Shown here one piece after another: positions 9,283 through 43,720 of a DNA stretch of 64,000 bases. Made by a program: the position numbers and the translations under genes. This stretch comes from Bacilli bacterium (GTDB taxonomy: Bacteria > Bacillota_I > Bacilli_A > RFN20 > CAG-826): NCBI GenBank assembly GCA_031556235.1, contig JAVBTH010000001.1, positions 590,763 to 654,762 of the forward strand, given 5' to 3'. Each line of letters opens with the position of its first letter. Position 1 is the first letter of the stretch. Below the pieces are notes generated by a model. It made no database searches. It was not told the DNA's origin and worked only from the letters and a program-made list of their open reading frames with translations.

Positions 9283-9586
9283 ATTAATTACCTCATTTCT
9301 ATTATTTAATTTTAAAGTAATACTATACGTATGTAAATGTTTTTATATAACTTTGCTCGACAAACATCGCATATTTTGATAAATGTTTATTAATAAAGAT
9401 ATTTTCGTATAGAAAAATATATCGTTTTGAAAATTTTGTTTAGATTTACTAAATGATTTTCTTACAATTTAATTTGAAAGAATAATAGAGCTATTAAGGA
9501 GTGTTTTGTCAAATAATCATTTGCGTTTCGCCTTTTATATGATTAATAAAGATGGTATAATTTCTTTTAAATGGGAGTGCTTAATT

Positions 9587-23822: not shown

Positions 23823-24761
23823 ATGGAAAAGGTCGTTTACTCAATAGTCGTTCCTGTATTTAACGAGGAAGAAGTTTTACCAGTTTTTTATGACACCATT
23901 GTTCCAATTATGGAAAAGTTAAATGAAACTTTTGAGATAGTTTTTGTTAATGATGGTAGCAAGGACAAAACTGAATCAATATTAAGAAAGCTGGCTAAAA
24001 AAGATAGACGCGTTATCGCGGTTAATTTTTCTCGCAATTTTGGGCAACAAGCAGCAATACATGCAGCCCTCAAATATTCTCGAGGCGAGGCAATGATTGT
24101 AATGGATGTTGATTTGCAAGATCCCCCAGAAGTTGCAGTAGAGATGACAAAAAAATGGAAAGAAGGCTATGACATTGTTCACGGAAAACGTGGAAAGCGT
24201 CGAGGAGAAACCATTTTCAAAAAGATTACTGCTTTTTTCTATTACCGTTTTTTAAGAAAGATTACAAACATGGATATCCCTGCAGATACAGGTGAATTTA
24301 AGTTATATGATCGTAAAGTTGTAGATGCTATTTTAGCGCTTCCAGAACATAATAGATATTTGCGCGGATTATCTACTTGGGTTGGCTTTAAGCAAACATT
24401 TGTTGAGTTTGAACGTCCAGAGCGCACAGTTGGTGTGACAAAATGGACAGTACGTAAAATGATTAGACTTGCTGGCGATGGAATTATCGCTAATAGTGCA
24501 TATCCCTTGTATCTTACCTTTAAAATGGGATTGTTTTTATCAATTATGTCTGTCGCTGCATTCATAACTTTCGTGGTATTAATTCTTGTAGGAATTGCAA
24601 TTCCTTTAGTTGCTTGGTTGTTCCCAACCATTACCCTAATTGGTGGATTAATTATGATTTATCAAGGATTAGGAAATTTATACATCTCTCGTATTTATGA
24701 CGAAGTTAAAGATCGTCCAATTTATATTGTTAGAGAATCTTTAAATAGAGATATTATTTAA
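23823..24761 (+). CDS. GT2 polyprenol-phosphate glycosyltransferase (GtrB/ArnC/CsbB-like)
   Basis: IVVPVFNEEE, VNDGSKDKT, MDVDLQDPPE, and two C-terminal TM helices. Confidence 0.85.
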   Translation: MEKVVYSIVVPVFNEEEVLPVFYDTIVPIMEKLNETFEIVFVNDGSKDKTESILRKLAKKDRRVIAVNFSRNFGQQAAIHAALKYSRGEAMIVMDVDLQDPPEVAVEMTKKWKEGYDIVHGKRGKRRGETIFKKITAFFYYRFLRKITNMDIPADTGEFKLYDRKVVDAILALPEHNRYLRGLSTWVGFKQTFVEFERPERTVGVTKWTVRKMIRLAGDGIIANSAYPLYLTFKMGLFLSIMSVAAFITFVVLILVGIAIPLVAWLFPTITLIGGLIMIYQGLGNLYISRIYDEVKDRPIYIVRESLNRDII

Positions 24762-24763
24762 AA

Positions 24764-25768
24764 ATGAAAGTACTATTACATTTTGAAAAAGAGAAGTTAC
24801 TACGACAAAGTGGTATTGGTCGTGCTTTAAGGCATCAAAAGAAAGCACTGCGAAGTGCTGGTATTGAATATACGCAAAGCACTACTGATTCATTTGATTT
24901 AGTACACACGAATACTCTTTTTGGAAAGTCTTTTAGAATGATGCGAAAGTTTCAAAAAAAAGGTGTGCCTGTTATTGTACATGGACATTCTACAATTGAA
25001 GATTTCCGCAACTCTTTTAGAGCTTGGAAGTTAATGGCGCCATTTTTTAATCGGATGATTTTAAAGATGTATCGTAACGCTGATTTGATTATTACACCTA
25101 CTCCTTACTCGAAAAATTTAATCGAAAACTATAAAGGTGTTAGATGCCCAGTCGTAGATGTTTCAAATGGCATCGACTTAGATGAATATACTTACAGTGA
25201 AGAGAAAATAAATAATTTTCGTCAGCACTTTAATTTGTATGATGAAAAAGTAGTTATTGGAATCGGATTATTTTTTGATCGCAAAGGAATTCGCGACTTT
25301 TTTGAAATCGCGAGCCAAATGCCAGAGATAAGATTTATTTGGTTTGGTCATTTAGGAAAATTGTTGACAACTCATAAAGTTAATAAAGCTATTAAAAGAA
25401 GGCCAAAAAATGTCATAATGCCAGGATATATTGATGGCGACATCATCAAAGGTGCTTTGCTAGATGCGGATGCAGTCTTATTTCCAAGTTATGAAGAAAC
25501 AGAAGGAATTGTTATTCTTGAAGGATTAGCTTCAAAAACTCCTGTTATAGTTCGTGATATACCTGTCTATTTTCCATGGTTAAAGCATGATGAAAATGTT
25601 TTAATGGCTAAAAATAATAACGAGTTTATCAACATGATTAATCGTGCAATTAATAAAGATATGTCTGCACTTGTTGAAAATGGCTATAAAGTTGTGCAAG
25701 CAAGAACAATTGAATTAGTTGGAGAAAGATTTAAAGAAGTGTATGAAAAAGTTTTAAAGGCGAATTAA
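24764..25768 (+). CDS. GT4-family glycosyltransferase
   Basis: GT-B fold with FPSYEETEGIVILEGLASKTPVIV (EX7E). Confidence 0.8.
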   Translation: MKVLLHFEKEKLLRQSGIGRALRHQKKALRSAGIEYTQSTTDSFDLVHTNTLFGKSFRMMRKFQKKGVPVIVHGHSTIEDFRNSFRAWKLMAPFFNRMILKMYRNADLIITPTPYSKNLIENYKGVRCPVVDVSNGIDLDEYTYSEEKINNFRQHFNLYDEKVVIGIGLFFDRKGIRDFFEIASQMPEIRFIWFGHLGKLLTTHKVNKAIKRRPKNVIMPGYIDGDIIKGALLDADAVLFPSYEETEGIVILEGLASKTPVIVRDIPVYFPWLKHDENVLMAKNNNEFINMINRAINKDMSALVENGYKVVQARTIELVGERFKEVYEKVLKAN

Positions 25769-26595
25769 AAGATAAAAGAGATTAAAATTGTCAGTGTTCC
25801 TGCAATTAAACAATATATAGAGAAATACCAGAGTTTACCTTTACTAATTATTTTTAAAAGTAATTTTAAACTTAAATAAGTAGTGAGAGCACTTATGATA
25901 ATGCCTATCAAATATGGAATTAAGAGATCGTAATTAAAGGAGGAGACTCCTTTTTTTATATCTAATAATTCTACAAATAATGCGCCCACTGTAATAGGAA
26001 TGAACATTAGAAAAGCGTATTTTGCTGAATCGCTATTTGTAATCTTTTGGTTTTTTGCTCCCGATATTGTTATCCCACTTCGCGAAATGCCAGGCACTAT
26101 ACCAACAGCTTGAAAAAGGCCAATAATCACTGCGTTTTTATAAGTCATTTCATTAATAGATTTACTTCCTTTTATCTTTCCGCTGAAATAAAGGATGGTT
26201 GCTGTAATAATTAAGCCGATTCCTATAAAAATAATGTTGGCAAAAACGCTCTCAATTGCCGATTTAAGCAACATACCTAATAACGCAGCGGGAATTGTAG
26301 ACACGATTAATAATGTGCCAAGTTTAAAATTTTTAAACGACTTATCGCGAGTTTTTTTAATAAAAATATAAGAACAAAAATCTACAGCAATCTCACGTAG
26401 CTCTTTAAAATAAAATATCAACACCGCAATCAGCGATCCAAGGTGTAAAAATATGCTGAGAGTTAAATCGCTAATATTCATACCAAAAAGATATTGAAAT
26501 ATTTGTAGATGACCTGAAGAAGATATGGGGAGTACCTCAGCGATACCCTGCACGATTGCAAGTAAAATGTATTGTAAGTATTCAATGATATGCAT
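25765..26595 (-). CDS. uppP: undecaprenyl-diphosphate phosphatase
   Basis: VLPISSSGHL and PGISRSGITISG motifs; 8-TM protein of 276 aa. Confidence 0.9.
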   Translation of the reverse strand: MHIIEYLQYILLAIVQGIAEVLPISSSGHLQIFQYLFGMNISDLTLSIFLHLGSLIAVLIFYFKELREIAVDFCSYIFIKKTRDKSFKNFKLGTLLIVSTIPAALLGMLLKSAIESVFANIIFIGIGLIITATILYFSGKIKGSKSINEMTYKNAVIIGLFQAVGIVPGISRSGITISGAKNQKITNSDSAKYAFLMFIPITVGALFVELLDIKKGVSSFNYDLLIPYLIGIIISALTTYLSLKLLLKIISKGKLWYFSIYCLIAGTLTILISFIF

Positions 26596-27566: not shown

Positions 27567-27602
27567 TATGGATTTGCTGAAGTAAACAACTATATTAACA
27601 AG

Positions 27603-27628
27603 AAAATACCGCAGGTGCGGTATTTTTA
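27603..27628. terminator. bidirectional intrinsic terminator
   Basis: AAAATACCGC-AGGT-GCGGTATTTT between convergent genes. Confidence 0.8.
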
Positions 27629-28009
27629 TTTCTTATAATAGTAAACTTCAGGATTTGAATTTTTAACTTTCATCGCGCTACCTTCATATACGACATATAA
27701 TACGGAAACGTGTCCGTCCACTAGAGGATTTGGTTTTCGAATATCGACGACATTTTTGAAATCTGCTGTAGCGTTTCTTTGCCAGGTGCACCATGGCTCA
27801 GAAGTCACATTAATTTCTCCGTTTGGAAGATGTTCGTTATATGTAAATGAACAAGTATTATCTATTTTAAGCACAAAAGTACTTACTAATTTATTTCCAT
27901 TTTTATTTGTACTTTCATTTTCGTATGTCCCTAAAATGCTGTCACAAGAAGTGGCTAGTGTTGATAAAATGATTACTCCTGAAATTAAAGCAAGGTTTTT
28001 AATATTCAT
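27626..28009 (-). CDS. hypothetical lipoprotein
   Basis: SD AGGAG lies 7 nt before ATG 28009. Signal peptide with lipobox LATSC. Confidence 0.55.
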   Translation of the reverse strand: MNIKNLALISGVIILSTLATSCDSILGTYENESTNKNGNKLVSTFVLKIDNTCSFTYNEHLPNGEINVTSEPWCTWQRNATADFKNVVDIRKPNPLVDGHVSVLYVVYEGSAMKVKNSNPEVYYYKK

Positions 28010-28112
28010 AAGAATTCTCCTATTGAAAATATTATATAGCATTTTTTGTTAAAACACAAAGCCATTTTAATAAAGTCAAAAATGCACTAAAGTGCTGCCT
28101 ATATAGCGTAAA

Positions 28113-28162: not shown

Positions 28163-28188
28163 TAAATAATAGGCCGGAGGTCGTCAAT

Positions 28189-31100
28189 ATGAATAGTATT
28201 TTAACGAGTTTTAATGGAAAAGTTAAGAATATAGCAAAGAGCATTAAATCAAAGTTGAATTTAAATAAACTATATAGCATTTTAATATTCTCTTTAATGT
28301 TCCTATATGGCTTAGATTTTCTTTCTGTTTCCTCTGTGTTTCTAGTCTTATTAATTGTCGTTTTTTCAATCAAAATGATTTTTACGGGTGAAATAGTAAC
28401 ATCACCGTATTTTTTTATCATTGCGATTTTTGGCATATCATATTTTGCGCTAGATGCGTTTAATTTTGGATTTAAAATCAACCATTTTATTCAATATTGC
28501 ATCGCTCCAGTAGTTTTCTATGAAATGGGACTTAATATATACAAGACTTATAAAGACAAGAATAAAGCACTATTTAATATGATATTTGCCTTTTTGCTAG
28601 GATTTACTATGCACGGACTCTTAAATATGGTCGCAAGAGTATTTGGTTTCGGGCTTTTGGGAAACGCTCGCGCTGCAATTGACATTTGGACTGGTGAAAT
28701 CGTTGTATCTACTGGCGTTGGTTCGATCTTATCGCCGTTAGCGTCTTTATTTTTTCCGATAGTTTTTATTAGGTTCAATGGCAAAAGATGGTACCACGTT
28801 TTGGGAATCATATTTATATTTGTCGCGACATTGTGGTCCGCGCTTTCACTTTCTAACCGCGGAGAATTAGTGATACTGATTCTTGGTCCAATGATTGGAC
28901 TACTTTACGTGCTTATTAGTGATAAAAAGCAACGTCGTAAAGTATTGATCGTTTTAGGAATTGTGCTAGTTGGAATTATAGGCGCTGTTGTCGCTTACAA
29001 AATGAATTTATTTGGAATTGAAAAAATTCTGGCAAAAATTCCAATTGTTCAACGGATTCTTAAAAACCCTATGTCGTTTTTTGATACTCCTAGATTAAAG
29101 ATATATAGCGATTTTCTCAAACAATTCCTTAATTTCCCACTTGGTGGAAAGAAGATTACACTGCCGGCAGGCGAAGGATATTGCCATAATGTTTGGCTAG
29201 ATATTTACTATACTGTAGGCGCTATACCAGCAGGATTATTCTTAATAATAACTTTTGCGTTTGTTAAACGCATTATAACTATTTGCATCTTAGGAAAAGA
29301 TACTTTCATTAAAGTTGTTACTGTCTGTCTTATGTCGACCATGTTCTTAGTATTCATGATCGAACCAATTATGCAATCTTCTATTTATCTGTTCTTATTT
29401 ATTTTCGTAGTATTTGGCATGATGGACGCAATGCACAAAGATTTGGTTGGTGTGTTTATAACGCGTTATCGTCGTCCACTTCCTGAAGATGGCAAATTGA
29501 AAGTAGCGTTTGTGTCAAATCACTTATCTATTCATCAAGTTACCTTATGTAAGGAACTAATAAGAATATATGGTGAAAACTTTACTTTTGTTGAAAGACA
29601 ATCACATGAAAATAGATTAATATCTTTAGATGAACATTCTTACATCATTGAGCAATGCGCTGTCAACATGTCTGATAACTCTGAAAAAGCAAAGCAAGTC
29701 ATTGACGATGCTGATATTTTGATATATGGTTCAGCTCCAAGTAAGGCAATTTTAAGACAGCTTAAAAGAGGTAAAGTTGTGTTTAGATATTCTGAAAGAC
29801 TTTATAAAACCGGTAAAATGTATGAATACTTTTCGCCAAGAGCGATTATTAGTCAGTTTAGAAATTATCACCGCTTAAGTAGATATAAACTTTATTACTT
29901 ATGCGCAAGCGCTTATACCTCATACGATTTATCAAGATTCGGAACAAGTGAAAATAGATGTTATAAATGGGGATATTATTCAATTGATAGTCAATTTGAA
30001 AGTTTTGAAGAACTTTTTGCACAAAAGAACAAAACTGAAACGACAGAAATATTATTTATCAACCGATTGCTTGACTGGAAACATCCAGAAAAATGTATTG
30101 TTGTGGCAAGGCACCTTAAAGAAAAAAACATTCCATTTAATATGAAAATAGTCGGCAAGGGCGAAGAAAAAATGGTAAGTTTTTTACAAAACGAAATTCT
30201 TATAGCAGGACTGAGAGATTTTGTCACATTAGTCGGTGCGGTTAGCAATGCGGAAGTTTTGGAAATGATGAAAAACGCGAATATAGTTTTTGCAAGTTCT
30301 GATTATGGCGAAGGATGGGGCGTTTGTGTCAACGAGGGAATGAGCAATGGCTGCGTTGTTGTAGCTAGTCATTCGCATGGATCGGTGCCATATTTGATTG
30401 AAGACAAAGTAAATGGTATTGTTTATAATTTCGACGATGATAAAGACATGTGCCGTCAAGTTGAAAGAATATGTAATGATAAAATGCTGCAAGAAGAAAT
30501 TGGTCGAAATGCTTTTAATACAATGAAAGAAAAGTGGAATGCGAAATACGCAGCAGATAAATTGAGCTACGTTATTGATCAAATTGTGCATAATCTACCA
30601 ATAGAAATTGAAGACCAATCAGGTCCGTTAGGAAAAGCAGAGGTTATTAAGCAAAATTGGTTTAGTAGAAAGAAAAGAAAGAATGTAATAGCTAATTCAG
30701 TTGATAAAGTAAATAAGACTGTAGAAAGCGGATCACAAATAAAAAAAGCTGCAGTCGTTTCTTACATTGCTGTATTCGTGAATATTATCACTGGACTACT
30801 TTATTTGCCTTGGATGGTCAAAACTATTGGCGAAGAAAAGTACGGAATATATTTAATCGCGCTTTCAATAATTAGTATGATTGCTTTGGACTTTGGGCTT
30901 GGCGATGCGATTGCCAAATTCTTAGCAAAATTCAAAGCAGAAAATGATACTCGTAAAGCTAGTGATTTCTTAGGTGTAATTTATAAAATATTCTTTATTC
31001 TCGGATTTATTATATTCGTAATACTCCTTGTGATATTTATTTTTATTAAGACGCTTTATGGAAAAAATCTCAGCGCTGAGTTGTTGCATCAACTTAAAGT

Positions 31101-32262
31101 AGTCTTTGTAATTGTTGGCTCTTTCTCAGTATTCTCGTTTGTGTGTCGCCCAATGGATTCGATTTTTGTAGCCAATGAAAAATTTACCGCTCAAAAGATT
31201 ATTAATCTTATTCATCGAATTCTGATTGTAGTTCTTGTTGTTGTATCGCTTTTACTTGGTGGAGACTTATATGCAGTCGTTCTTGCAAACGTGGTATCAG
31301 GTTTAGTTACAATCGTCATGAGATATTTCTATTTAAAGAAAAATGTAAATATCAAAATTAATTTTAAAAAGCGAGATCCTGAAATAGTAAAAACGATATT
31401 TAGCTTTACAGTTTGGGTAACCATTACGATGTTAGCTCAAAGATTAATTCTTAACATAACACCGACGATACTTAAAAATATGAGTACAGATTACGAATTA
31501 ACTAGATGGGGTCTAGGTGCCTCAATTGAATCATATGTCTTTATCTTATCTTCAACACTCAATGGATTATTACTTCCAAAACTGAGCAGAATGGATGCCA
31601 GTAATGCAACTTCTGAACAGTATACAAAGTTATTAATTCGCGTTGGACGTATACAAATGTTTGTATCTTGTTTGCTTGTGGGAGGGTTTATTGCACTTGG
31701 AAGAGGATTCGTGACTGTTTGGATGAAATCGCCAAATTACGATGTCACTTATTATGTAACAATGTTTTTAATAATTCCAAGTTTAGTGACAAATTCCTTA
31801 CATACTGGACTGACACTCTTAGTTGTTAAAAATAAGATTAAGTATCAAACTATTAGCGTTGTAGTCAGCGCAGTCATATGTCTTGTTGCTAATGTATTGT
31901 TATCAGGACCATATGGCGCGACCGGCTCTGCAATTGGAATTATGGCTGGGTTATTGATTGGAAACGTAGTATTACAAAGTTTTTTCCTTTCAAAACAAGC
32001 TAACATAAAAATGTTTTCTTTCTATAAATCTGTACATTTAAAATACATTCTCCAATTTGCCGTTATTGTCGCGATTGGCTTAGGAATTGAATATGTTATT
32101 CCAACTCAAGGATGGATGTTCTTCGTGATAAAAGGATGTATGTTCGTAATTGTTTATGGAGTTATTACGTGGTTTACCGCGATGAACAAAGAAGAAAAGA
32201 GCATTATTTTACCAGCAATTAGACAAATCAGTAATATTTTGGACAAGGTTAATGAATATTAA
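28189..32262 (+). CDS. tripartite fusion: O-antigen ligase/polymerase-like (Wzy_C) + GT-B glycosyltransferase + Wzx/MOP flippase
   Basis: Single 1357-codon ORF with SD GGAGG. Contains LSNRGE and GYCHNVWLDIYYTVGAIPAG (Wzy_C-like), EGWGVCVNEGMSNG (EX7E), and a C-terminal ~500-aa polytopic Polysacc_synt-like region. Confidence 0.8.
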   Translation: MNSILTSFNGKVKNIAKSIKSKLNLNKLYSILIFSLMFLYGLDFLSVSSVFLVLLIVVFSIKMIFTGEIVTSPYFFIIAIFGISYFALDAFNFGFKINHFIQYCIAPVVFYEMGLNIYKTYKDKNKALFNMIFAFLLGFTMHGLLNMVARVFGFGLLGNARAAIDIWTGEIVVSTGVGSILSPLASLFFPIVFIRFNGKRWYHVLGIIFIFVATLWSALSLSNRGELVILILGPMIGLLYVLISDKKQRRKVLIVLGIVLVGIIGAVVAYKMNLFGIEKILAKIPIVQRILKNPMSFFDTPRLKIYSDFLKQFLNFPLGGKKITLPAGEGYCHNVWLDIYYTVGAIPAGLFLIITFAFVKRIITICILGKDTFIKVVTVCLMSTMFLVFMIEPIMQSSIYLFLFIFVVFGMMDAMHKDLVGVFITRYRRPLPEDGKLKVAFVSNHLSIHQVTLCKELIRIYGENFTFVERQSHENRLISLDEHSYIIEQCAVNMSDNSEKAKQVIDDADILIYGSAPSKAILRQLKRGKVVFRYSERLYKTGKMYEYFSPRAIISQFRNYHRLSRYKLYYLCASAYTSYDLSRFGTSENRCYKWGYYSIDSQFESFEELFAQKNKTETTEILFINRLLDWKHPEKCIVVARHLKEKNIPFNMKIVGKGEEKMVSFLQNEILIAGLRDFVTLVGAVSNAEVLEMMKNANIVFASSDYGEGWGVCVNEGMSNGCVVVASHSHGSVPYLIEDKVNGIVYNFDDDKDMCRQVERICNDKMLQEEIGRNAFNTMKEKWNAKYAADKLSYVIDQIVHNLPIEIEDQSGPLGKAEVIKQNWFSRKKRKNVIANSVDKVNKTVESGSQIKKAAVVSYIAVFVNIITGLLYLPWMVKTIGEEKYGIYLIALSIISMIALDFGLGDAIAKFLAKFKAENDTRKASDFLGVIYKIFFILGFIIFVILLVIFIFIKTLYGKNLSAELLHQLKVVFVIVGSFSVFSFVCRPMDSIFVANEKFTAQKIINLIHRILIVVLVVVSLLLGGDLYAVVLANVVSGLVTIVMRYFYLKKNVNIKINFKKRDPEIVKTIFSFTVWVTITMLAQRLILNITPTILKNMSTDYELTRWGLGASIESYVFILSSTLNGLLLPKLSRMDASNATSEQYTKLLIRVGRIQMFVSCLLVGGFIALGRGFVTVWMKSPNYDVTYYVTMFLIIPSLVTNSLHTGLTLLVVKNKIKYQTISVVVSAVICLVANVLLSGPYGATGSAIGIMAGLLIGNVVLQSFFLSKQANIKMFSFYKSVHLKYILQFAVIVAIGLGIEYVIPTQGWMFFVIKGCMFVIVYGVITWFTAMNKEEKSIILPAIRQISNILDKVNEY

Positions 32263-32297: not shown

Positions 32298-33308
32298 ATG
32301 GAATTTAAAAACAAAGTACTCATGGTTGTTGGTGGAACAGGATCGTTTGGTAACGCAGTAGTTAAGAGATTCTTGAAGACTGACATTAAAGAAATACGTA
32401 TCTTATCGCGAGATGAGAAAAAGCAAGATGATATGCGTAAGTTTTATAATAATGATAAGTTGAAATTCTATATTGGAGATGTGCGAGATTATGCATCGAT
32501 TGATAATGCTTTTCGCGGTGTTGATTATGTATTTCACGCTGCTGCTTTAAAGCAAGTCCCATCTTGTGAATTCTATCCAATGGAAGCTGTTAAAACAAAT
32601 ATCATCGGCAGTGATAATGTTATTACTGCTTGTGTTAACCATAGCGTGGAAAAAGCTATCTTTTTATCCACGGATAAAGCTGCTTATCCAATTAATGCGA
32701 TGGGAATATCAAAAGCAATGATGGAAAAAAATGTCGTAGCTAGAAGCCGTCAGTTATTACCGGGTGATACAGTTCTTTGTCTAACTCGTTACGGCAACGT
32801 GATGGCGTCACGTGGATCGGTTATTCCATTATTCTTAGAACAAATTGCTTTAAATCAACCGATAACAGTAACTAATCCAGAGATGACAAGATTTATGATG
32901 ACCCTTGATGAAGCGGTTGATCTAGTTCTCTATGCATTTGAATTTGGAGAACAGGGTGATTTATTCGTTCAAAAGGCTCCATCTGCGACCATTGACGTGT
33001 TAGCTAAAGCTGTTTTGTCTTTATGCAAATCCAACGTTGGCGTGTCATATATCGGCACAAGACATGGAGAAAAACTATATGAAGTTTTAGTCACTGCTGA
33101 AGAAATGTCAAAATCAAGTGACCTCGGCGAGTATTATCGCATTCCCGCTGACAATCGTGATTTGAATTATAATAAATATGTCGAGAAGGGTAATAAGCGT
33201 ATTGAAGTTGCACAAGAATATCATTCACATAATACGAAACTATTAACTGTCGAGGAAATGAAAAAGAAACTATTAGAACTTGACCTGTTTGAAGAAGAGG
33301 TACAATAA
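32298..33308 (+). CDS. fnlA: UDP-GlcNAc 4,6-dehydratase/5-epimerase (FnlA/CapE/WbjB-like)
   Basis: GGTGSFGN Rossmann motif; 336 aa; first gene of a conserved three-gene order. Confidence 0.88.
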   Translation: MEFKNKVLMVVGGTGSFGNAVVKRFLKTDIKEIRILSRDEKKQDDMRKFYNNDKLKFYIGDVRDYASIDNAFRGVDYVFHAAALKQVPSCEFYPMEAVKTNIIGSDNVITACVNHSVEKAIFLSTDKAAYPINAMGISKAMMEKNVVARSRQLLPGDTVLCLTRYGNVMASRGSVIPLFLEQIALNQPITVTNPEMTRFMMTLDEAVDLVLYAFEFGEQGDLFVQKAPSATIDVLAKAVLSLCKSNVGVSYIGTRHGEKLYEVLVTAEEMSKSSDLGEYYRIPADNRDLNYNKYVEKGNKRIEVAQEYHSHNTKLLTVEEMKKKLLELDLFEEEVQ

Positions 33309-34420
33309 TGAAAATACTAGTTACTGGTGCGAAAGGATTTGTTGGAAAGAATATAAGCCACGAACTTATTAACCAACAGTTTGAAGTGCTTCCGATTGAT
33401 ATTGATGATAATGAAGAAACTTTATCATCTTATATTAATGAAGCGGATTTTGTCGTGCATCTTGCAGGAGCAAATCGCCCATTGACTACCGAAGAATTCT
33501 ATTCTGGAAATGCAAATTTTACATTTAAGCTATGTGAATTGCTTAAAAAGGAAAATAGGCAAATCCCAATTATTTTTTCTTCAACAATTCAAGCCGCAAA
33601 AGACAACGATTATGGTAAAAGTAAAAAAATGGCGGAGGATTACTTAATAGATTTTGGAAAAAACAATAAGTGCCCCGTATATATATATAGATTGTCCAAT
33701 GTATTTGGCAAGTGGTGTCGCCCAAACTATAATTCGGTTGTAGCGACGTTTTGCCATAATATCACACATGATTTACCGATTACTATTAATGATGAAAACG
33801 CCTTAATTACATTTGTTTATATTGATGATATTGTTAAGGAATTTATTGATGTTATTAAAGGCTTTGTCAAAGTTGATGTTGCTTCTCAATATTTGGAAGT
33901 AAGACCATTATACGAAGTTACATTAGGCAAATTAGCGCAATTATTATATAAATTCAAAGAATCTCGTAAAACGCTAAATGTCGCAGATACGAGTGGAGGT
34001 TTTGAAACTAAATTATACGCAACATACCTAAGTTACATTGAACCAACAGACTATGCTTATGAACTTAAAATGAATGTTGATAATCGTGGATCATTTACTG
34101 AGTTTATAAAAACGGCAAGTGCTGGGCAATACTCAATTAATGTAGCGCATCCAGGAATTGCTAAAGGGCAACATTGGCATCATAGCAAAAATGAAAAGTT
34201 TTTAGTAGTTGCGGGGAAAGCTATCATAAAACTTCGACAAATAGATAGTGAAGAGATTTATGAATATATCGTATCTGGAGAAAAACTTACAGTAGTGGAT
34301 ATCCCTGTTGGATATACGCACTCAATCACAAATATTGGAGACGTCGATTTAGTGACAGTCATGTGGGCGAGTGAGTCGTTTAATAAAGATAAACCTGACA
34401 CATACTTTTTGGAGGTATAA
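33308..34420 (+). CDS. fnlB: FnlB/CapF/WbjC-like reductase-epimerase (SDR plus C-terminal cupin)
   Basis: ILVTGAKGFVGKN; C-terminal cupin-like GQHWHHSKNEKF; 370 aa. Start and stop overlap with fnlA. Confidence 0.82.
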   Translation: MKILVTGAKGFVGKNISHELINQQFEVLPIDIDDNEETLSSYINEADFVVHLAGANRPLTTEEFYSGNANFTFKLCELLKKENRQIPIIFSSTIQAAKDNDYGKSKKMAEDYLIDFGKNNKCPVYIYRLSNVFGKWCRPNYNSVVATFCHNITHDLPITINDENALITFVYIDDIVKEFIDVIKGFVKVDVASQYLEVRPLYEVTLGKLAQLLYKFKESRKTLNVADTSGGFETKLYATYLSYIEPTDYAYELKMNVDNRGSFTEFIKTASAGQYSINVAHPGIAKGQHWHHSKNEKFLVVAGKAIIKLRQIDSEEIYEYIVSGEKLTVVDIPVGYTHSITNIGDVDLVTVMWASESFNKDKPDTYFLEV

Positions 34421-34421
34421 C

Positions 34422-35546
34422 ATGAAAAAGTTCAAATTGATGACAATACTTGGCACTAGACCAGAGATCATTCGCTTGTCAGAAACTATAAAAGCTTGCG
34501 ATAAGTACTTTGATCATGTACTTGTGCATACAGGACAAAACTGGGATTATACTCTTAACGAAGTGTTTTTTGAAGACCTTAAATTAAGAGCTCCAGATTA
34601 TTACCTAGATTCGGTTGGTGAAAATCTTGGTCAAACAATGGGAAATATTATTGCGAAATCTTATGAAATTATTGCAAAAGAAAAACCAGATGCCTTACTA
34701 GTTTTAGGAGACACAAATAGTGCTTTAGCGGCGATTGCCGCTAAAAGACTTAAATGTCCAATTTTCCATATGGAAGCTGGCAATAGATGCTGGGACTGGA
34801 ACGTTTCTGAAATGATTAATCGTAAAATTGTTGATCACATTTCTGATATTAATTTGCCATATACTGAGCATTCACGTCGTTATTTGCTTAATGAAGGAAT
34901 TGATGGGAAAACTATTTTCGTGACTGGCTCACCAATGCATGAGGTAATTCTCGCGCACAAGGAAACAATTGAAAAAAGCGATGTTTTAGTTAAACTAGAA
35001 TTAAAGAAAAATAAATATATTCTTGTTTCTTCACATCGTGAAGAAAACATTGATTTAGAAGAAAACTTTATTTCACTTATGACATCGATTAATAATATTG
35101 CGGAAAAATATCAAGTGCCTGTAATATATTCGACCCATCCTAGAACACAAAAATTTATTGAAAAAAGAAAATTTGTTTTCCATCCGCTCGTAAAAAATCT
35201 CAAGCCTTTTGGATTTAATGATTATTGTAAATTGCAAATGAATGCACTCTGCGTGCTTTCTGATAGTGGTACTCTTTCTGAAGAAAGCGCAATGTTAGAT
35301 TTTCCTGCTGTTCTAATTAGAACATCAACAGAAAGACCAGAAGTATTAGATAAAGGAAGTATTGTCATTGGAGGCATTAAATCAATCGATGTTGAACAGG
35401 CGACTGATTTAGCTTTGTCTATGCACAATAATAAAGAACCGTTTGTTTTGGCAAATGATTATAAAGATCTAAATGTGTCTGTTAAAGTTGTTAAGATTAT
35501 TCAAAGCTACGCTCATATTGTTAATAAGACGACATGGTTAAAATAA
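34422..35546 (+). CDS. fnlC: UDP-N-acetylglucosamine 2-epimerase family (FnlC/CapG/WbjD-like)
   Basis: ILGTRPEIIRL; SD GGAGG precedes ATG 34422. Confidence 0.88.
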   Translation: MKKFKLMTILGTRPEIIRLSETIKACDKYFDHVLVHTGQNWDYTLNEVFFEDLKLRAPDYYLDSVGENLGQTMGNIIAKSYEIIAKEKPDALLVLGDTNSALAAIAAKRLKCPIFHMEAGNRCWDWNVSEMINRKIVDHISDINLPYTEHSRRYLLNEGIDGKTIFVTGSPMHEVILAHKETIEKSDVLVKLELKKNKYILVSSHREENIDLEENFISLMTSINNIAEKYQVPVIYSTHPRTQKFIEKRKFVFHPLVKNLKPFGFNDYCKLQMNALCVLSDSGTLSEESAMLDFPAVLIRTSTERPEVLDKGSIVIGGIKSIDVEQATDLALSMHNNKEPFVLANDYKDLNVSVKVVKIIQSYAHIVNKTTWLK

Positions 35547-35574
35547 CGCGGTAATCACCCGCGTTTATTTATTT
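35545..35574 (+). terminator. probable (leaky) intrinsic terminator
   Basis: Stem AACGCGG/CCGCGTT with a 7-nt loop, followed by an interrupted T-run TTTATTTATTT. Confidence 0.55.
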
Positions 35575-35585
35575 AGGTAAAGAAA

Positions 35586-37133
35586 ATGAAAAAAAGGACC
35601 AGAGTAATTACCGCATCAATCCTATTCGCATCTATAAATGCGTTAATTGTTTTTGAATCGCTCTTACCTGGGACTTTATCAACCTTACAGACGCAGTTCA
35701 TTACTAAACCGTTAATCGCGATAACGGAATTCTTTAGACCAAATACTTATAAAGTTATAGAACCTACTAGTATAGAAATTCGTGGCAAAAGCGAAGTGTA
35801 TCTGGGTGAAAAATTAAAATATGATGTCATTTTTGCACCACAAAAGATTACTTATCCTTCGGTAATATGGACTATTGACGACACTTCACTTGCTACGGTT
35901 GATTCGAATGGAACAATCACTGCTTTATCGGTTGGCCAAGTTATATTAACATGCCAATACGCTGGAGATGAAAGCATTAATACTAGTAAAACTATTGATA
36001 TCGTTGATGCCCCAATAGTAATACCAAGTACTTTACAAATCAGCTCTAAAGAATTAACAGTTCTAAAAGGTACATCAACAAAAGTTGATACTTTTGTTGA
36101 TAATGACGAAGAGTTTAACTATACCATTGATTTTTATAGTGAAAATGAAGCAATTGCGACAGTGAATGAATTTGGAATAATAAAGGCGCATAGTTATGGC
36201 GTAGTTGAGATTTCGGCGAGAATTAAAGATTACCCTGAAGTGGTTAGCAACACTATTACTCTTACGGTAGTTGAAGGTGAAGTGGTTAAACCAGCCTCAA
36301 TTGAATTCCTAGTTAGTGAAGACGTTTATGTTGGTAGACAAACTGTTCCAGAAGTGGCAATACTTCCATCAAACGCTACCGATGTAAAATATCGACTTGT
36401 AAGTAGCGATAGTAGCATAGCAAAAATTGATAGAAACAATGGCGTAGTTGGATTAAAATCAGGGACTGTGACAATTTCTGTCATACATAGCTATGATGAA
36501 TCGATTTCTTATAGTAAAACGATAGAGATAAAAGATGTTTTGCCTACAAGTCTAGATGTGAAAATTGTTGGCACAGATACTATTTTTGTCGCAGGAAAAA
36601 CAAAGCAACTAGAGGCTATTTTAACGCCGATTGATGTTACAAATAGAAAGATTATATGGAGTTCTAGTGATGAAAGTATAGCAAAAATTGATAATAATGG
36701 ATTGGTTTTCGTAGTTAAAGAGGGAACAGTAGAAATCACTGCGAAAACTGATGTAGATAATGAAATAAGTATTAATAAAACTTATCAAACACAAAAAGCT
36801 TCCGCTTTAAATGGCGATGAGCAGTCTGTATTTAGAAAATATTTCCGCAAGATTATTGGTCATTTTGGATTATACGCTGCCGACGGGATTGTTACTCTTT
36901 GGTTTTTTAAAGAGATAATAAGCGGGTTGAAAAAACCGATCATTGTTAGTGGAATTTTGGGTTTATCCATGGCGGTGGTAACTGAAGTTTTGCAATTAAT
37001 TCCTGGAGGTAGAGCTTCACAAATCTCCGATATGGCAATCAATTTTAGTGGCTTTTTGCTAGGGATAATTACATTTGTTTGCATTCTTTTATGCCACAAA
37101 AAGCGGACAAATAAAAAGAAAACTAGAGTTTAA
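35586..37133 (+). CDS. VanZ-like membrane protein carrying four Big_2 (bacterial Ig-like) domains
   Basis: N-terminal TM helix with FESLLPG. Four repeats of about 85 aa with the pattern D..ATVD.NG.ITA...G.V.I. C-terminal GHFGLYAADG...EVLQLIPGGRASQISDMAINFSGFLLG is VanZ-like. Confidence 0.75.
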   Translation: MKKRTRVITASILFASINALIVFESLLPGTLSTLQTQFITKPLIAITEFFRPNTYKVIEPTSIEIRGKSEVYLGEKLKYDVIFAPQKITYPSVIWTIDDTSLATVDSNGTITALSVGQVILTCQYAGDESINTSKTIDIVDAPIVIPSTLQISSKELTVLKGTSTKVDTFVDNDEEFNYTIDFYSENEAIATVNEFGIIKAHSYGVVEISARIKDYPEVVSNTITLTVVEGEVVKPASIEFLVSEDVYVGRQTVPEVAILPSNATDVKYRLVSSDSSIAKIDRNNGVVGLKSGTVTISVIHSYDESISYSKTIEIKDVLPTSLDVKIVGTDTIFVAGKTKQLEAILTPIDVTNRKIIWSSSDESIAKIDNNGLVFVVKEGTVEITAKTDVDNEISINKTYQTQKASALNGDEQSVFRKYFRKIIGHFGLYAADGIVTLWFFKEIISGLKKPIIVSGILGLSMAVVTEVLQLIPGGRASQISDMAINFSGFLLGIITFVCILLCHKKRTNKKKTRV

Positions 37134-39511: not shown

Positions 39512-42370
39512 ATGAATAAGTTAACTAAAAAACTAGGAGTACTATTCTTAGGCATGGTAACGGCTTTAGGAATAGGTCTTACCGGGGGAGCGGAAAAGAA
39601 AGGTGTAAAGGCTGAAGAATTAACATCTTCAATTAGTTGTACTGCTGGTACTATTGTCAGCAACACAATGACCTTTAAAACCGCTGATGATGCTTTTACG
39701 ATTGTTCACGCGAAAGGTTCTGACTCGAACTTTGCGTCGTATTCTTCGTGGAGAGTATATACTGCCAACACCGTTACATTTACACCAAACATTGAAATTT
39801 TGAGCATTAAGAAAATCGCAATTACTGCTGACACTGCAGCCTACGCTACAGCGGCACAAAATGGAACGATTAAAGCTGGTGCAAATTCAAGTGCTGGTAC
39901 AGTAACTGGAAAAGGTTCAGTATCTGGCTCAGTTGCCACTATTGATTTGTCTTCAATGGAAAACGTTCAATATGTCAACATTAAACCAAGTGCACAATCA
40001 AGATGGGCAAGTATTGTTATCACATACGAAACCGCAACTGTTGATTTGCAACCTGATGCTGATGCGTTCATGCTTAAAGTTGACGCATTAGTTGGAAAAG
40101 TCACTGTCGACTCAGGTGCAGACATTGCTGCTCTTGAAGAAGAGTATGCTGAATTAGCCGAGGGCGTTCAAGTTTTAGTTGATGCTGCTGATTATGTTGC
40201 TAAAATGGCACAAATCAAAGCTGACTATGCTACTGCTCTTGAATCTGCTGCAGATGAAATCGCTGATGCATTTATGGAACAAGTCGATGCATTAGTCGGA
40301 AACGTCGCTGCTACAGATGGCGAAAAAATTGATGAGTTAGAAACAGTTTATGCTACATACACCGGAACAGTAAAAGACTTAATTGATGGTGCTGGCTATG
40401 TTGCAAAGATGACACAAATCAAAATTGATTATGAAGCAGCCGTTGAAGCTGTTGCTGTTGCAGCTGACCAAGCTAAAGCAGATGAATTTATGGTTAGAGT
40501 CGATGCATTACATGAAAAAGAAATTACTGTTGATGATGCTGCTACAATTACTGGATTAGAAAACGAATACGCATTATTCTCAGAAAGAGTAAAAACTTTT
40601 GTTAATAGCGCTGGCTATGTTGCTAAAATGGTAGAAATCAAAGCTGCTCACAAAGCCGCTGATGATGCTGCAAAACAAGCATTAGCAGATGTCGTAATTG
40701 ACATGATTGCTGAATTACCAGCTGTTGAATTATTAGTACCTGGAGATGCCGCAAAAGTTAAAGAAGCCCGTGCTGCTTATGAAGCACTAGCGGCTGCTGT
40801 TCAAGCATTTGTTACAAATCTTGAAGACTTAGTTGCTGCTGAAGCAAAAATTAAAGAAATTTCTCCTACATACGAAATTGCCTTTACAAATGCCTTATCT
40901 AGCGATGGTAGTACAGGACTTAACTCAACGACATTCCAAACAAAATATCCTTTACCAACAGGACTTAGTTTATCCGCAATTAATGGATACATTTACGAAG
41001 GTAAAGGCTCTACATTAAAGGTTTCTTCTGGTTCGAATAACGGAACGTTTACCTTAGCTGTAGGATCTGACAAATATATTACCTCTGTTGTTGTTACAGC
41101 TTCCAAATATGGTTCTGATACAGGAACAATCAAAGTAAATAGTGGCGCAGCTCAAACTGTACCTGCTACTGTTGGAGAATTAGAGTTTGATATATCTGCT
41201 CAAAAAACAAATTTAGCTAAATTTGACTTTACCGCTAGATCTTATATTCACTCAATCGTAATTGGCTTTGCTACCTTAGTTTCAGAAATTTCTGTTACTG
41301 GCGTAGAAATTACTCCAGCTACATTAGATTTAGATCTTGGTGGTACTGCAACAATTGCTGTTAATGTTTTACCATCAAACGCTACAGATGGTACTTATGC
41401 TTTAGTTTCAGATGATGAAAGTGTTGCTACCGTTACTTCTGCTGGATTAGTTACTGCAGTCGGAATTGGTGAAGCTACCATTACAGCTACAACAAATGAT
41501 GGTGCTAAAACCGCTACATGTGCTGTTAAAGTTCTTGCACCTGCAACAATTAAAAAAGATGTAACTGCCTCATTCCCAGGTGGAGCGGGACTTACATTTG
41601 ATACAGATTTCGCAGGATTGAAATTCCACGTCACATATGGTGAACACGTCTATCGTGCTTATACCGCTGAAAAAGGCGCACAAATGGGTTCTGCTACAAC
41701 TACTGGCGAAATTAAATTTGCAACCAAGATTGCTAGATTTAATCCAGGTGATGTAGAAAGAGTCGCTGTTACTGCTTCACTTTCAAGTGCAACAGGCGTC
41801 GCAACCCTTAAAGTTATGGTTGGCGGAACACAAATTGGTGAAACCGTTAATCTTACAAACACTTCAACTCAATACATATTTGAAGGTGCACAAGTAAGTG
41901 CTGTTAAGAGAGCCTTAGGCGAAGATGCAGGAGCGTTAGAGATTATTACTTCTGGTAATGGTGTCTGCTTCAAATCCTTCTCAGTCTATGGTGCTGCTGA
42001 AGAAATTGCACTCGCACAATCTACTGCAGTTACAGATTTCCTTGCTGAAATGCACTCAGTAGATACATGTGAAGATTTCGAATTAAGCTCATTACTCAGA
42101 GAAATGTATGATGATTTAACTGCTGAAGAACAAGCTTTAGTAGACTTACAAACTTATACAACTGCTACTGGAACTGAAGAAACAATCATGAGCAAACTTG
42201 CATACATGGAGCTTCTTGCTGCACAAGCTGAAGCCGAAGCTGCTGGTTCACAATCATTATTGGATATCGTTAGTTCAGATAACATGACTGCAATTATTGT
42301 CATCGCAGTTCTTGGATTATCAGCTTTACTCGGATACTATATCTTAGAAAAGAAAAAGTTAGTTGCTTAA
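39512..42370 (+). CDS. Ala/Thr-rich repeat-containing cell-surface protein with C-terminal TM anchor
   Basis: 952 aa with SD TAGGAGGAA and a signal peptide. It has helical repeats, one clear Big_2 domain (VTGVEITPATLDLDLGGTATI...ATCAVKV), and a C-terminal hydrophobic helix followed by KKK. Confidence 0.8.
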   Translation: MNKLTKKLGVLFLGMVTALGIGLTGGAEKKGVKAEELTSSISCTAGTIVSNTMTFKTADDAFTIVHAKGSDSNFASYSSWRVYTANTVTFTPNIEILSIKKIAITADTAAYATAAQNGTIKAGANSSAGTVTGKGSVSGSVATIDLSSMENVQYVNIKPSAQSRWASIVITYETATVDLQPDADAFMLKVDALVGKVTVDSGADIAALEEEYAELAEGVQVLVDAADYVAKMAQIKADYATALESAADEIADAFMEQVDALVGNVAATDGEKIDELETVYATYTGTVKDLIDGAGYVAKMTQIKIDYEAAVEAVAVAADQAKADEFMVRVDALHEKEITVDDAATITGLENEYALFSERVKTFVNSAGYVAKMVEIKAAHKAADDAAKQALADVVIDMIAELPAVELLVPGDAAKVKEARAAYEALAAAVQAFVTNLEDLVAAEAKIKEISPTYEIAFTNALSSDGSTGLNSTTFQTKYPLPTGLSLSAINGYIYEGKGSTLKVSSGSNNGTFTLAVGSDKYITSVVVTASKYGSDTGTIKVNSGAAQTVPATVGELEFDISAQKTNLAKFDFTARSYIHSIVIGFATLVSEISVTGVEITPATLDLDLGGTATIAVNVLPSNATDGTYALVSDDESVATVTSAGLVTAVGIGEATITATTNDGAKTATCAVKVLAPATIKKDVTASFPGGAGLTFDTDFAGLKFHVTYGEHVYRAYTAEKGAQMGSATTTGEIKFATKIARFNPGDVERVAVTASLSSATGVATLKVMVGGTQIGETVNLTNTSTQYIFEGAQVSAVKRALGEDAGALEIITSGNGVCFKSFSVYGAAEEIALAQSTAVTDFLAEMHSVDTCEDFELSSLLREMYDDLTAEEQALVDLQTYTTATGTEETIMSKLAYMELLAAQAEAEAAGSQSLLDIVSSDNMTAIIVIAVLGLSALLGYYILEKKKLVA
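40055..40861 (+). repeat. four tandem, diverged ~60-75-codon helical repeats inside the surface-protein gene
   Basis: The peptide pattern (A)DAFM..VDAL.G.V...D...I..LE..Y......V..L.D.AGYVAKM.QIK.DY recurs. The DNA core GCTGGCTATGTTGCNAARATG recurs near 40190, 40390 and 40610. Confidence 0.8.
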
Positions 42371-42448: not shown

Positions 42449-43657
42449 TTAAAATGTTTTATAGAAGTTATTGTTGTACTTTATAATAATCTCCTTAAGT
42501 TCCTCTAATCCAAGTAATTTAATATTTGTAGTTTGGGCGAGTTCTATGGCCTGTTTGGTGTATGAGGTATTTGTTATTAACCACGCCTCAAACGCTCCTT
42601 CAAGCGATTGTATCGCCTTCAATTCTTTAACTACGGTGCTATTAATAGGATCGTTATGTCTTTTAACTTGTATTACGACATGACCTAAGTTTTGCTCATC
42701 AATAAATGTTAAGTAATTTCCATATTCGGAATTTGATTTTTGAATAATATCAATGTTGTAGATTGATTTAAGTGCCGATTGTACATAACTGCTAAATTTT
42801 GGTCCGCTCATTGTCTCAATTTTTTTTAGACTACTGTCATATACTTTTTCTAAGTGCTCGTATTTTATAAAAGCATCTTTGATCGAGGATACATCTTTAT
42901 ACATTTCGTAGTTGTGTGTAATTTTAAGTAATTCTTCATATTCATTTATTTGCTCTCTACGCGCACGCGTATATAAGGTAAATAGGAATCGCGATTTACT
43001 ATTCAGTATTAACACATAATCAGTTTTTCTTTTTGATTGAGCATCTATTTCAATAATTGGGTCAACATGATCGTAATGAATTACTGAAGGGTTGAGCAAA
43101 TTTGATTCAATTGTAGTTTGTAGCATAATGTCGTTATAAATGAATATGTGCTTTTTGCGTAATCTTATGTGATTATTCGGGCCAAATATTTTTTTAAGAT
43201 ATACATCGCTTAAGTAATGGCTAGTTTTACTAACAAACATTAGCATCAAATCCTTCATTAACATCTTTTCTGATGAATCGATGAACTCACTCATATCAAC
43301 AAGATTTGGAACACTTGGCAGATTATTTAACAATTCAACGACTTCATTTGTATTAAGGCTTCTCTGCATATTTTTAATTTTAAACAATTCACTTACTGAT
43401 TTATTTATAGTGGCAAGCGATTCTAAATTTCTATGTATATAAGCAATGCTTGGCCTTGAAGTAGTCTTAAAGCGAATCTTTTTATCGACTAAGTTCACTT
43501 TATATTTGTTTTCATATGAGATTAATAATTTATTATACTTGTGATATGACAAGTTATGGCGATGTCGGTAAATATATAAGCGAATTAGTAAATAAACTAA
43601 GGAGGTAAATAATAAAACTGATACGGAAATAAGAATTGTCAACTCAATTGCGCCCAT
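42449..43657 (-). CDS. membrane-anchored protein with C-terminal restriction-endonuclease (Mrr_cat, PD-(D/E)xK) domain
   Basis: N-terminal TM helix followed by RHRH, then about 270 aa of unknown domain. The C-terminus FSSYVQSALKSIY...SEYGNYLTFID...GHVVIQVKRHN...V.EL...LITNTSYTKQAIELA matches the Mrr-type pattern. The start could be ATG 43657 or GTG 43669. Confidence 0.65.
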   Translation of the reverse strand: MGAIELTILISVSVLLFTSLVYLLIRLYIYRHRHNLSYHKYNKLLISYENKYKVNLVDKKIRFKTTSRPSIAYIHRNLESLATINKSVSELFKIKNMQRSLNTNEVVELLNNLPSVPNLVDMSEFIDSSEKMLMKDLMLMFVSKTSHYLSDVYLKKIFGPNNHIRLRKKHIFIYNDIMLQTTIESNLLNPSVIHYDHVDPIIEIDAQSKRKTDYVLILNSKSRFLFTLYTRARREQINEYEELLKITHNYEMYKDVSSIKDAFIKYEHLEKVYDSSLKKIETMSGPKFSSYVQSALKSIYNIDIIQKSNSEYGNYLTFIDEQNLGHVVIQVKRHNDPINSTVVKELKAIQSLEGAFEAWLITNTSYTKQAIELAQTTNIKLLGLEELKEIIIKYNNNFYKTF

Positions 43658-43720
43658 ATATTTATTCACCGCCCTCTATAAAATATTATAACTGATAGTA
43701 AAAGGAAATATAAGACTTGA

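Follow-up and report, generated by a model that had tools for sequence, protein, structure and literature searches.

A Wzy_C-like membrane module, a GT4 glycosyltransferase and a Wzx-type flippase encoded as one polypeptide in uncultured Bacillota

Can a Wzy-like membrane protein, a glycosyltransferase (GT) and the flippase Wzx be encoded as one polypeptide, and which steps of surface polysaccharide assembly would such a polypeptide carry? The question is raised by a gene at positions 28189-32262 (+) of a 64,000-nucleotide stretch of a Bacilli bacterium genome (GCA_031556235.1, contig JAVBTH010000001.1, positions 590,763 to 654,762), hereafter the window. The gene is a single open reading frame (ORF) of 1357 codons with an ATG start, zero internal stops and a TAA stop at 32260-32262, preceded by the Shine-Dalgarno sequence GGAGG at 28176-28180 (+), 8 nt before the ATG; the gene that follows begins at 32298 and has its own GGAGG ahead. 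The original prediction, made from the letters of the DNA, described an uninterrupted ORF with this Shine-Dalgarno sequence that joins three modules, and the ORF list, the translation and the sequence itself agree with it, the order being Wzy_C-like, GT4 and Wzx. The motifs quoted at that time are likewise all present in the translation, namely LSNRGE at amino acids (aa) 221-226, GYCHNVWLDIYYTVGAIPAG at aa 330-349, EGWGVCVNEGMSNG at aa 708-721, containing E708 and E716 of an EX7E motif, and FSRKKRKN at aa 825-832. G+C content is ~33% over the region and base composition is unbroken across the ORF, including both module junctions; a 4-kb open frame in DNA of such composition is therefore not due to chance. 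Furthermore, 10,074 bases that span the whole ORF recur with 0 mismatches in the Logan assembly of run SRR23967709, although this run may hold the same reads, so that the match demonstrates agreement between assemblers and not an independent sample. The fusion ORF is thus confirmed as a real, single gene, the predicted product of which has a mass of ~155 kDa and ~26 transmembrane (TM) helices.

The architecture recurs in other genomes. The family was found by an exhaustive HMMER search with aa 1-1200 as the query against 1.84 billion representatives, in which the top matches were eight other proteins, each belonging to its own 50%-identity cluster (P0003-P0008, P0010 and P0011). These relatives, 1350-1766 aa in length, are collinear with the fusion protein and align with it over aa ~10-1200 at 27-41% identity, and the three-module fusion comprises 9 such clusters among the top matches. 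Public relatives include MCH5180309.1 (Erysipelotrichales) and HMM00286.1/MCH3976595.1 (Bacilli), named just 'glycosyltransferase' by NCBI, and the IMG name of one relative is 'O-antigen/teichoic acid export membrane protein/glycosyltransferase'; an exact look-up of P0011 found no contig. In a scan of GTDB species genomes, a single-protein query found no relative, whereas a 4-sequence alignment used as the query revealed uninterrupted frames of 1377-1395 aa in two Erysipelotrichales metagenome-assembled genomes (MAGs) and one MAG labelled Staphylococcaceae (L009-L011). The fusion, sought in related genomes, is thus present in eight other clusters and in three GTDB genomes; it is rare, its few carriers being uncultured Firmicutes of gut type, and it appears to be confined to uncultured Bacillota. 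No description of a Wzx/Wzy/GT fusion was found in the literature searched, consistent with the earlier statement that no characterized protein with all three modules was known.

The same modules also occur unfused and in other combinations. In two Eubacteriales MAGs (L012 and L013), the Wzy-like protein (394/412 aa), the GT (381/393 aa) and Wzx (517/553 aa) are encoded by separate, neighbouring genes in the same order, with one inserted gene between the GT and Wzx. Proteins consisting of the N-terminal module (N-module) and the GT end at the module boundary (P0009, P0031 and P0040), and others comprise the GT and Wzx (P0015 and P0017). Further arrangements include Wzy_C-GT-Wzx-GT4 of about 1760 aa, which is confirmed by Pfam for P0006 and assigned by length and alignment only for P0008, GT-Wzx-GT4 (P0015), Wzx-GT4 (P0016), Wzx-Wzy_C in the reverse order and with no GT (P0042 and P0106) and Wzx-Glyphos_transf (P0002). 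Wzx thus seems to have been joined to its pathway partners repeatedly in metagenomic Bacillota. One of the two-module proteins, P0009/P0160 (N-module and GT, 792 aa; 7001-9379 in L007/L008), has a degenerate EX7E region, DYDPEFSMITTSGMENG, and lies in a locus with a separate Wzy_C and Wzx pair; it may be a paralogue with an inactive GT.

The module limits proposed originally (aa 30-415, 435-805 and 850-1345) agree with independent limits derived from stand-alone homologues: GTs of 373-404 aa begin exactly at aa 437 and match aa 437-~825 over their full length, and separately encoded Wzx proteins align from aa ~847 onward. Of the Pfam families anticipated for the three segments, Glycos_transf_1 and Polysacc_synt were found directly, both above their gathering cut-offs, and Wzy_C was found in relatives only. 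The GT module (aa 437-820; 29497-30648, +) is assigned to family GT4 with a cytoplasmic GT-B fold on the grounds of Pfam, stand-alone homologues and AlphaFold2 (AF2)/Foldseek. It matches Glycos_transf_1 at aa 607-776 (E 7e-28, 97.7 bits versus a cut-off of 26.4) and Glyco_trans_1_4 (61.1 bits versus 27); Pfam Glyco_transf_4 has no match in its N-terminal half, and no NCBIfam equivalog reaches its cut-off. The EX7E motif, read from the translation (E708 to E716; 30310-30336, +), is invariant in the 9 full-length fusions. In the AF2 model, strand-helix units alternate over aa ~439-800, as befits GT-B, and the Foldseek matches of this part are HepE, BshA, PglA and MshA (TMt about 0.65-0.73).

The C-terminal module (aa 850-1357; 30736-32259, +) is a Wzx/MOP flippase module with ~14 TM helices and cytoplasmic N- and C-ends, as judged from Pfam, NCBIfam, Foldseek and the count of lysines and arginines (K+R). 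It matches Polysacc_synt (PF01943) at aa 855-1133 (E 4e-18, 66.3 bits versus a cut-off of 28.2) and Polysacc_synt_3 (43.1 bits versus 23), and its closest fold is that of MurJ (6nc9, E 2.4e-9, TMt 0.75). The match to NCBIfam WZX_like (NF041503) over aa 857-1242 (E 2.5e-13, 49.9 bits) is far under the cut-off of 300; by these scores, the module is of the Wzx type but outside the curated WZX_like subfamily. Stand-alone Wzx relatives from Planococcus and Exiguobacterium, named 'oligosaccharide flippase family protein', are 33-41% identical. Thus, the module shares with the Wzx/MurJ flippases of the MOP superfamily, for one of which, WzxE, a structure is reportedly described in one paper, a Pfam match over the cut-off, ~14 TM helices, ends inside and a MurJ-like fold, and differs from them in that two other modules precede it in the same chain. 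Between the GT and Wzx modules lies a basic linker (aa 821-849; 30649-30735, +) that includes FSRKKRKN and was delimited from family junctions and from the predicted local distance difference test (pLDDT) of a second AF2 model (aa 395-1357, GT and Wzx; overall pLDDT 77.7, predicted TM-score (pTM) 0.50). pLDDT is <50 at aa 832-849 (model residues 438-455), and the length and sequence of the linker vary among relatives. By contrast, the N-module-to-GT junction is short and runs on from TM12 as a helix.

The N-module (aa 1-436; 28189-29496, +) had been proposed to be of the Wzy_C/WaaL type. Although its own sequence has no direct match to a hidden Markov model (HMM), the assignment gains support from its relatives and from a WaaL-like AF2 model. 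In the 12-member alignment of family N-modules (A1), 7/12 match Wzy_C with a best E of 5.5e-10; the four-module relative P0006 scores 36.6 bits against a gathering cut-off of 31.7, and a stand-alone N-module relative (L017) scores 35.4 bits. The AF2 model built on A1 (pLDDT 83.9, pTM 0.83) contains 12 hydrophobic helices, and its top Foldseek match in the PDB is WaaL (7tpg_B, E 1.6e-5, probability 1.00, TM-scores 0.54/0.57). Next come matches to FtsW, a SEDS polymerase of similar fold (E about 0.2); a SEDS (FtsW/RodA) identity was considered and rejected, since these matches are far weaker than that to WaaL and the family matches Wzy_C. Twelve family N-modules share invariant R224, R289, R302, H333-N334, G344 and E392-P393. 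Of these, R289, R302, H333-N334 and G344 are predicted to lie within a large extracytoplasmic loop of 73 residues between TM9 and TM10 (aa 272-344; 29002-29220, +), delimited from the alignment invariants, AF2 secondary structure and topology reasoning; R224 is placed at the extracytoplasmic end of TM8, and E392-P393 in the final outer loop. The module resembles WaaL (PDB 7TPG) and the Wzy_C family (PF04932) in having 12 TM helices, both ends inside and a large outer loop, with invariant Arg and His, that precedes the final three TM helices; these outer-face residues are likened to those of WaaL by type and location and not by residue-by-residue alignment, sequence identity between the two being 14%. 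The H-N-X9-G pattern at aa 333-344 is presumably the WaaL/PglL motif, a lead rather than a test. In contrast to WaaL, the C-end of the N-module is fused to a cytoplasmic GT, and the host is monoderm, so that lipid A-core is not the acceptor. Overall, the N-module is best described as a divergent Wzy_C/WaaL-fold domain, an identity confirmed only indirectly, by transitivity and predicted structure. Pfam Wzy_C spans WaaL, many Wzy polymerases, the O-oligosaccharyltransferases PglL/PilO and pneumococcal TacL.

The predicted topology is 12 TM helices, a cytoplasmic GT and 14 TM helices, with all termini inside. The N-in/C-in orientation of the N-module follows from its N-tail (aa 1-24), which contains six lysines, from basic short loops after TM4, TM6 and TM8 (YKDKNK, RFNGKR and DKKQRRK) and from a basic segment, RYRR, after TM12; both the N-tail and the basic C-end of the module (aa 421-436) are predicted to be cytoplasmic. 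This orientation places R224, R289, R302, H333-N334, E392 and the TM9-TM10 loop outside and lets the GT begin in the cytoplasm. K+R counts in the Wzx module likewise fit N-in/C-in, as the predicted inner loops contain 27 and the outer loops 6. Consistent with what had been expected of a GT set between two membrane blocks, the GT is thus predicted to lie on the cytoplasmic face and not on the wrong side of the membrane.

What glycan the fusion might serve is suggested by its neighbours. Immediately downstream are genes for an fnlA/capE-type UDP-GlcNAc 4,6-dehydratase/5-epimerase (32298-33308, +; Polysacc_synt_2, E 5e-101, and Polysacc_syn_2C), an fnlB/capF-type reductase (33308-34420, +; Epimerase and Polysacc_synt_C) and an fnlC/capG-type UDP-GlcNAc 2-epimerase (34371-35546, +; Epimerase_2, E 2e-85), which make up the pathway to UDP-N-acetyl-L-fucosamine (UDP-L-FucNAc). 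With the listed start, GTG at 34371, fnlC would share 50 nt with fnlB; the gene called on the identical Logan contig L001 starts at 9234, which corresponds to window position 34422 and yields 374 aa, and this is probably the true start. Terminator-like hairpins, both from a consensus scan only, precede the fusion gene (27602-27627) and follow fnlC (35545-35565, +), and the operon would therefore consist of the fusion, fnlA, fnlB and fnlC, so that fnlABC is co-transcribed with the fusion by these predicted limits. Besides the window, six distinct loci (L002, L003/L009, L011, L012, L014 and L017) have fnlABC beside the module set, fused or not. A partner GT4 (9506-10774, +), identified by Pfam and 48% identical to the product of the gene just after the fusion in L002, has orthologues that directly flank the fusion or the unfused set in six distinct loci (L002, L003/L009, L011, L012, L013 and L014); in the window, it lies 18 kb from the fusion, beside glutamine synthetase, and the locus has therefore been rearranged in the source genome. 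Pfam also identifies a GT2 (23823-24761, +) and a GT4 (24764-25768, +) upstream of the fusion, which are probable further repeat-unit transferases. On the opposite strand, between these GT genes and the fusion, lies a gene for the undecaprenyl-diphosphate (Und-PP) phosphatase UppP/BacA (25765-26595, -; BacA, E 5e-69); it is plausible that this enzyme recycles the carrier lipid for the pathway, a functional link suggested by position. The idea that the fusion would be a 'self-contained glycan assembly line' is not upheld: the fusion is without a priming transferase, other GTs, sugar-nucleotide synthesis and an attachment step, and these functions are encoded elsewhere (by the upstream GT2 and GT4, the partner GT4 and the downstream fnlABC) or not in the window. 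The fusion protein is one station of a pathway.

Taken together, we consider it fairly probable that the ~155-kDa protein combines three successive steps in a Wzx/Wzy-type pathway by which a Gram-positive member of the Bacillota, probably Erysipelotrichales-like, makes a surface polysaccharide containing L-FucNAc, with the N-module acting as the polymerase. First, the GT2 and GT4 and a priming transferase whose gene lies elsewhere would build an oligosaccharide linked to Und-PP on the inner face of the membrane. The GT4 module (aa 437-820) would then add a late, possibly the last, sugar, plausibly L-FucNAc, or one added onto L-FucNAc, supplied via fnlABC, and the tethered 14-TM Wzx module (aa 850-1357) would flip the finished unit. 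Outside, the Wzy_C-fold module with its Arg/His loop (R224, R289, R302 and H333) would move the growing chain onto the new unit, and the released Und-PP could be recycled by the neighbouring UppP. In this scheme, the fusion would fix a 1:1:1 stoichiometry and keep the three sites close; its sugar specificity, the choice of polymerase over ligase chemistry, the hand-over between modules and an uncleaved protein are what we infer. Structure-specific Wzy polymerases typically travel with repeat-unit genes, whereas ligases are usually glycan-relaxed and encoded elsewhere. Polymerase activity is favoured because the N-module and its stand-alone relatives are co-inherited with repeat-unit genes and because of the arrangement in the cultured Robiginitalea (L017, Bacteroidota), where the part scanned of a polysaccharide cluster that contains Wzx yielded a single Wzy_C protein, the N-module relative, whose gene is followed by a GT4 gene and fnlABC.

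Several observations weigh against this scheme. The window N-module, searched as the 434 N-terminal residues, has no match at E<=1 in Pfam or NCBIfam and so falls short of the Wzy_C gathering score; searched against PDB sequences, it yields no match at E<=10 as a single sequence and only noise as a profile, and its identity leans, as said, on transitivity and a predicted structure. The AF2 alignments are shallow (12 sequences for the N-module and 9 for GT and Wzx), and at a pTM of 0.50 the second model does not reliably give the packing of the modules. The solved structure that the N-module matches best is a ligase, WaaL, and not a polymerase, and in L007 an N-module and GT fusion stands beside a separate Wzy_C and Wzx pair, so that the polymerase of some genomes may be a protein other than the N-module. 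It is by co-location that the GT module would be connected with L-FucNAc, and the intactness of the 155-kDa product is presumed from the gene. No Bac_transf or other priming family was found for a priming phosphoglycosyl transferase among the window ORFs scanned, nor by tblastn, and this enzyme may lie outside the 64-kb window; no Wzz/CpsC-D chain-length regulator or LCP attachment enzyme was found among the same ORFs, which did not include every small ORF. The completeness of the pathway thus cannot be shown from the window. A rival scheme keeps the same architecture but makes it a transferase-flippase-ligase, in which the N-module moves the flipped Und-PP-glycan en bloc to an acceptor such as a glycolipid anchor (as TacL does), a surface protein (as do O-oligosaccharyltransferases of the PglL/WsaB type) or another envelope molecule. 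This alternative is in our estimation unlikely, yet several observations speak for it. Besides the match to WaaL, the L007 arrangement and the lack of Wzz/CpsC-type co-polymerase and LCP genes among the ORFs scanned, LicD accompanies relatives in four loci (L002, L003, L007 and L012), a conserved Big_2-VanZ membrane protein encoded downstream might, speculatively, be the acceptor, and pneumococcal TacL is a Wzy_C-domain protein that acts as a ligase in a Gram-positive (PMC5727136). Nevertheless, the N-module and its stand-alone relatives travel with repeat-unit genes (the partner GT4 and fnlABC), even in the Bacteroidota cluster, the window itself is devoid of LicD by tblastn, and WaaL is the sole member of the Wzy_C family among the PDB matches of the N-module model, so that its top rank does not discriminate between the two activities.

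Two other explanations concern the polypeptide itself. The long ORF could be an assembly or sequencing artefact hiding a frameshift or stop, or a recent pseudo-fusion with one or more inactive modules; indeed, the unfused order Wzy-like, GT, Wzx exists in relatives, from which one stop loss could make such an ORF, and the only second assembly of the exact sequence may share its reads. However, collinear fusions with both junctions in frame, at 27-41% identity, are present in at least 8 other clusters and three GTDB genomes, base composition is uniform across the junctions, and the family invariants R224, R289, R302, H333, E392, E708 and E716, as well as those of Wzx, are intact in the window copy. 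An artefact is thus rejected on comparative grounds and practically excluded. Alternatively, one chain could be cleaved, or internal starts could give separate Wzy-like, GT and Wzx proteins, the fusion serving only co-expression and co-insertion. We regard this as improbable. The GT-Wzx linker, being basic, poorly conserved and predicted to be disordered, would suit cleavage, but the N-module-to-GT junction is a short continuation of the TM12 helix, and neither a protease site nor a protease partner was identified. As to internal starts, no in-frame ATG, GTG or TTG with an SD-like sequence was found near either module junction, and in the Wzx module the first Met comes only within TM1; internal translation starts at the junctions were accordingly rejected.

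The remaining neighbours of the fusion include two candidate accessory proteins. A 138-aa predicted lipoprotein (27626-28042, -), recognized by its signal peptide and the lipobox LATSC and matching nothing in Pfam, is encoded divergently from the fusion. In L002 and L007, weak homologues (29-31% identity) are likewise encoded next to the fusion and divergently from it, and in L003 a lipobox-bearing 142-aa ORF with no detectable similarity to it lies just upstream of the fusion on the same strand; the 138-aa ORF may be a conserved accessory lipoprotein. Downstream of the operon, 35586-37133 (+) encodes a protein of 515 aa in which Pfam finds four Big_2 domains and, at the C-terminus, a VanZ domain; it is conserved just downstream of the locus in L002 and L007 (29% identity) and might serve the glycan system as an acceptor or an accessory. 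An alpha/beta hydrolase gene is a further upstream neighbour, and the surrounding housekeeping genes include pcrA, ligA, gatCAB and smpB. Unrelated to the fusion are a protein of 952 aa in which a single Big_2 domain is the only Pfam match (39512-42370, +), an Mrr_cat-type restriction-endonuclease-like protein (42449-43669, -) and a Fic-domain protein (54164-55156, +). In related loci, LicD (L002, L003, L007 and L012) is joined by an APH/LicA-like kinase and a cytidylyltransferase (4491-5492 in L012 and 17572-17991 in L003), which by analogy suggests decoration with phosphocholine-type or other phospho-alcohol groups of the kind known from pneumococcal teichoic acid; the window carries none of these genes.

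How does the locus compare with known systems? By gene roles, not by sequence, it may be likened to the cap5/cap8 capsule locus of Staphylococcus aureus, with which it shares a Gram-positive host, the fnlABC/capEFG trio, GT4 transferases, Wzx and a Wzy-type membrane protein. In S. aureus, CapE, CapF and CapG synthesize UDP-L-FucNAc, CapL and CapI are GT4 transferases, CapK is the flippase, CapJ the polymerase, and CapM and CapD act in priming; this capsule pathway has reportedly been reconstituted in one paper. L002, the locus of the nearest relative, is cap5/cap8-like in also encoding a CapD-like dehydratase, a small Bac_transf priming enzyme and a UDP-sugar dehydrogenase. By contrast with the S. 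aureus clusters, in which each step is a separate protein, the polymerase-like module, the GT and the flippase form one chain here, and no CapA/B-type regulator, LCP or priming enzyme was found among the window ORFs scanned. In concept, the fusion also recalls MprF, an aminoacyl-phospholipid synthase fused to its flippase, in that a cytoplasmic synthase domain and a flippase for its lipid-linked product reside in one polypeptide. This is analogy and not homology: the folds differ, as do the substrates (a phospholipid versus an Und-PP-glycan), and MprF has no third, outward-facing catalytic module.

What is new is the covalent architecture; the three families are well known, the pathway is of a textbook type, neighbouring steps of a pathway are often fused, and fusion implies no new chemistry. 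There is also a gap in annotation, as the NCBI relatives are named only 'glycosyltransferase' and the N-module escapes Pfam. To our knowledge, direct evidence of contact among Wzx, Wzy and the GTs of Wzx/Wzy pathways is scarce, and this leaves poorly explained both the specificity of flippases for complete units and the coupling of flipping to polymerization. A single chain with a fixed 1:1:1 stoichiometry is an attractive target for cryo-electron microscopy and biochemistry, with three sites in one particle, and could serve as a compact glycoengineering part. The fusion has been retained among deeply diverged proteins (27-41% identity), the unfused genes lie side by side in the same order elsewhere, and several other permutations exist; together, this constitutes classical Rosetta-stone evidence for the physical proximity of GT, Wzx and Wzy. 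More tentatively, we suggest, as a possibility that we rate well below even, that the Wzx and Wzy_C modules pack side by side with the GT docked beneath, and that the unit is handed from the GT to the flippase and on to the polymerase, staying out of the bulk lipid. If this is true, nature would here provide the long-postulated Wzx-Wzy(-GT) complex in covalently locked form, and the permutations found in the family (Wzy_C-GT-Wzx, Wzy_C-GT-Wzx-GT, GT-Wzx, Wzx-GT and Wzx-Wzy_C) would reflect repeated selection for that contact.

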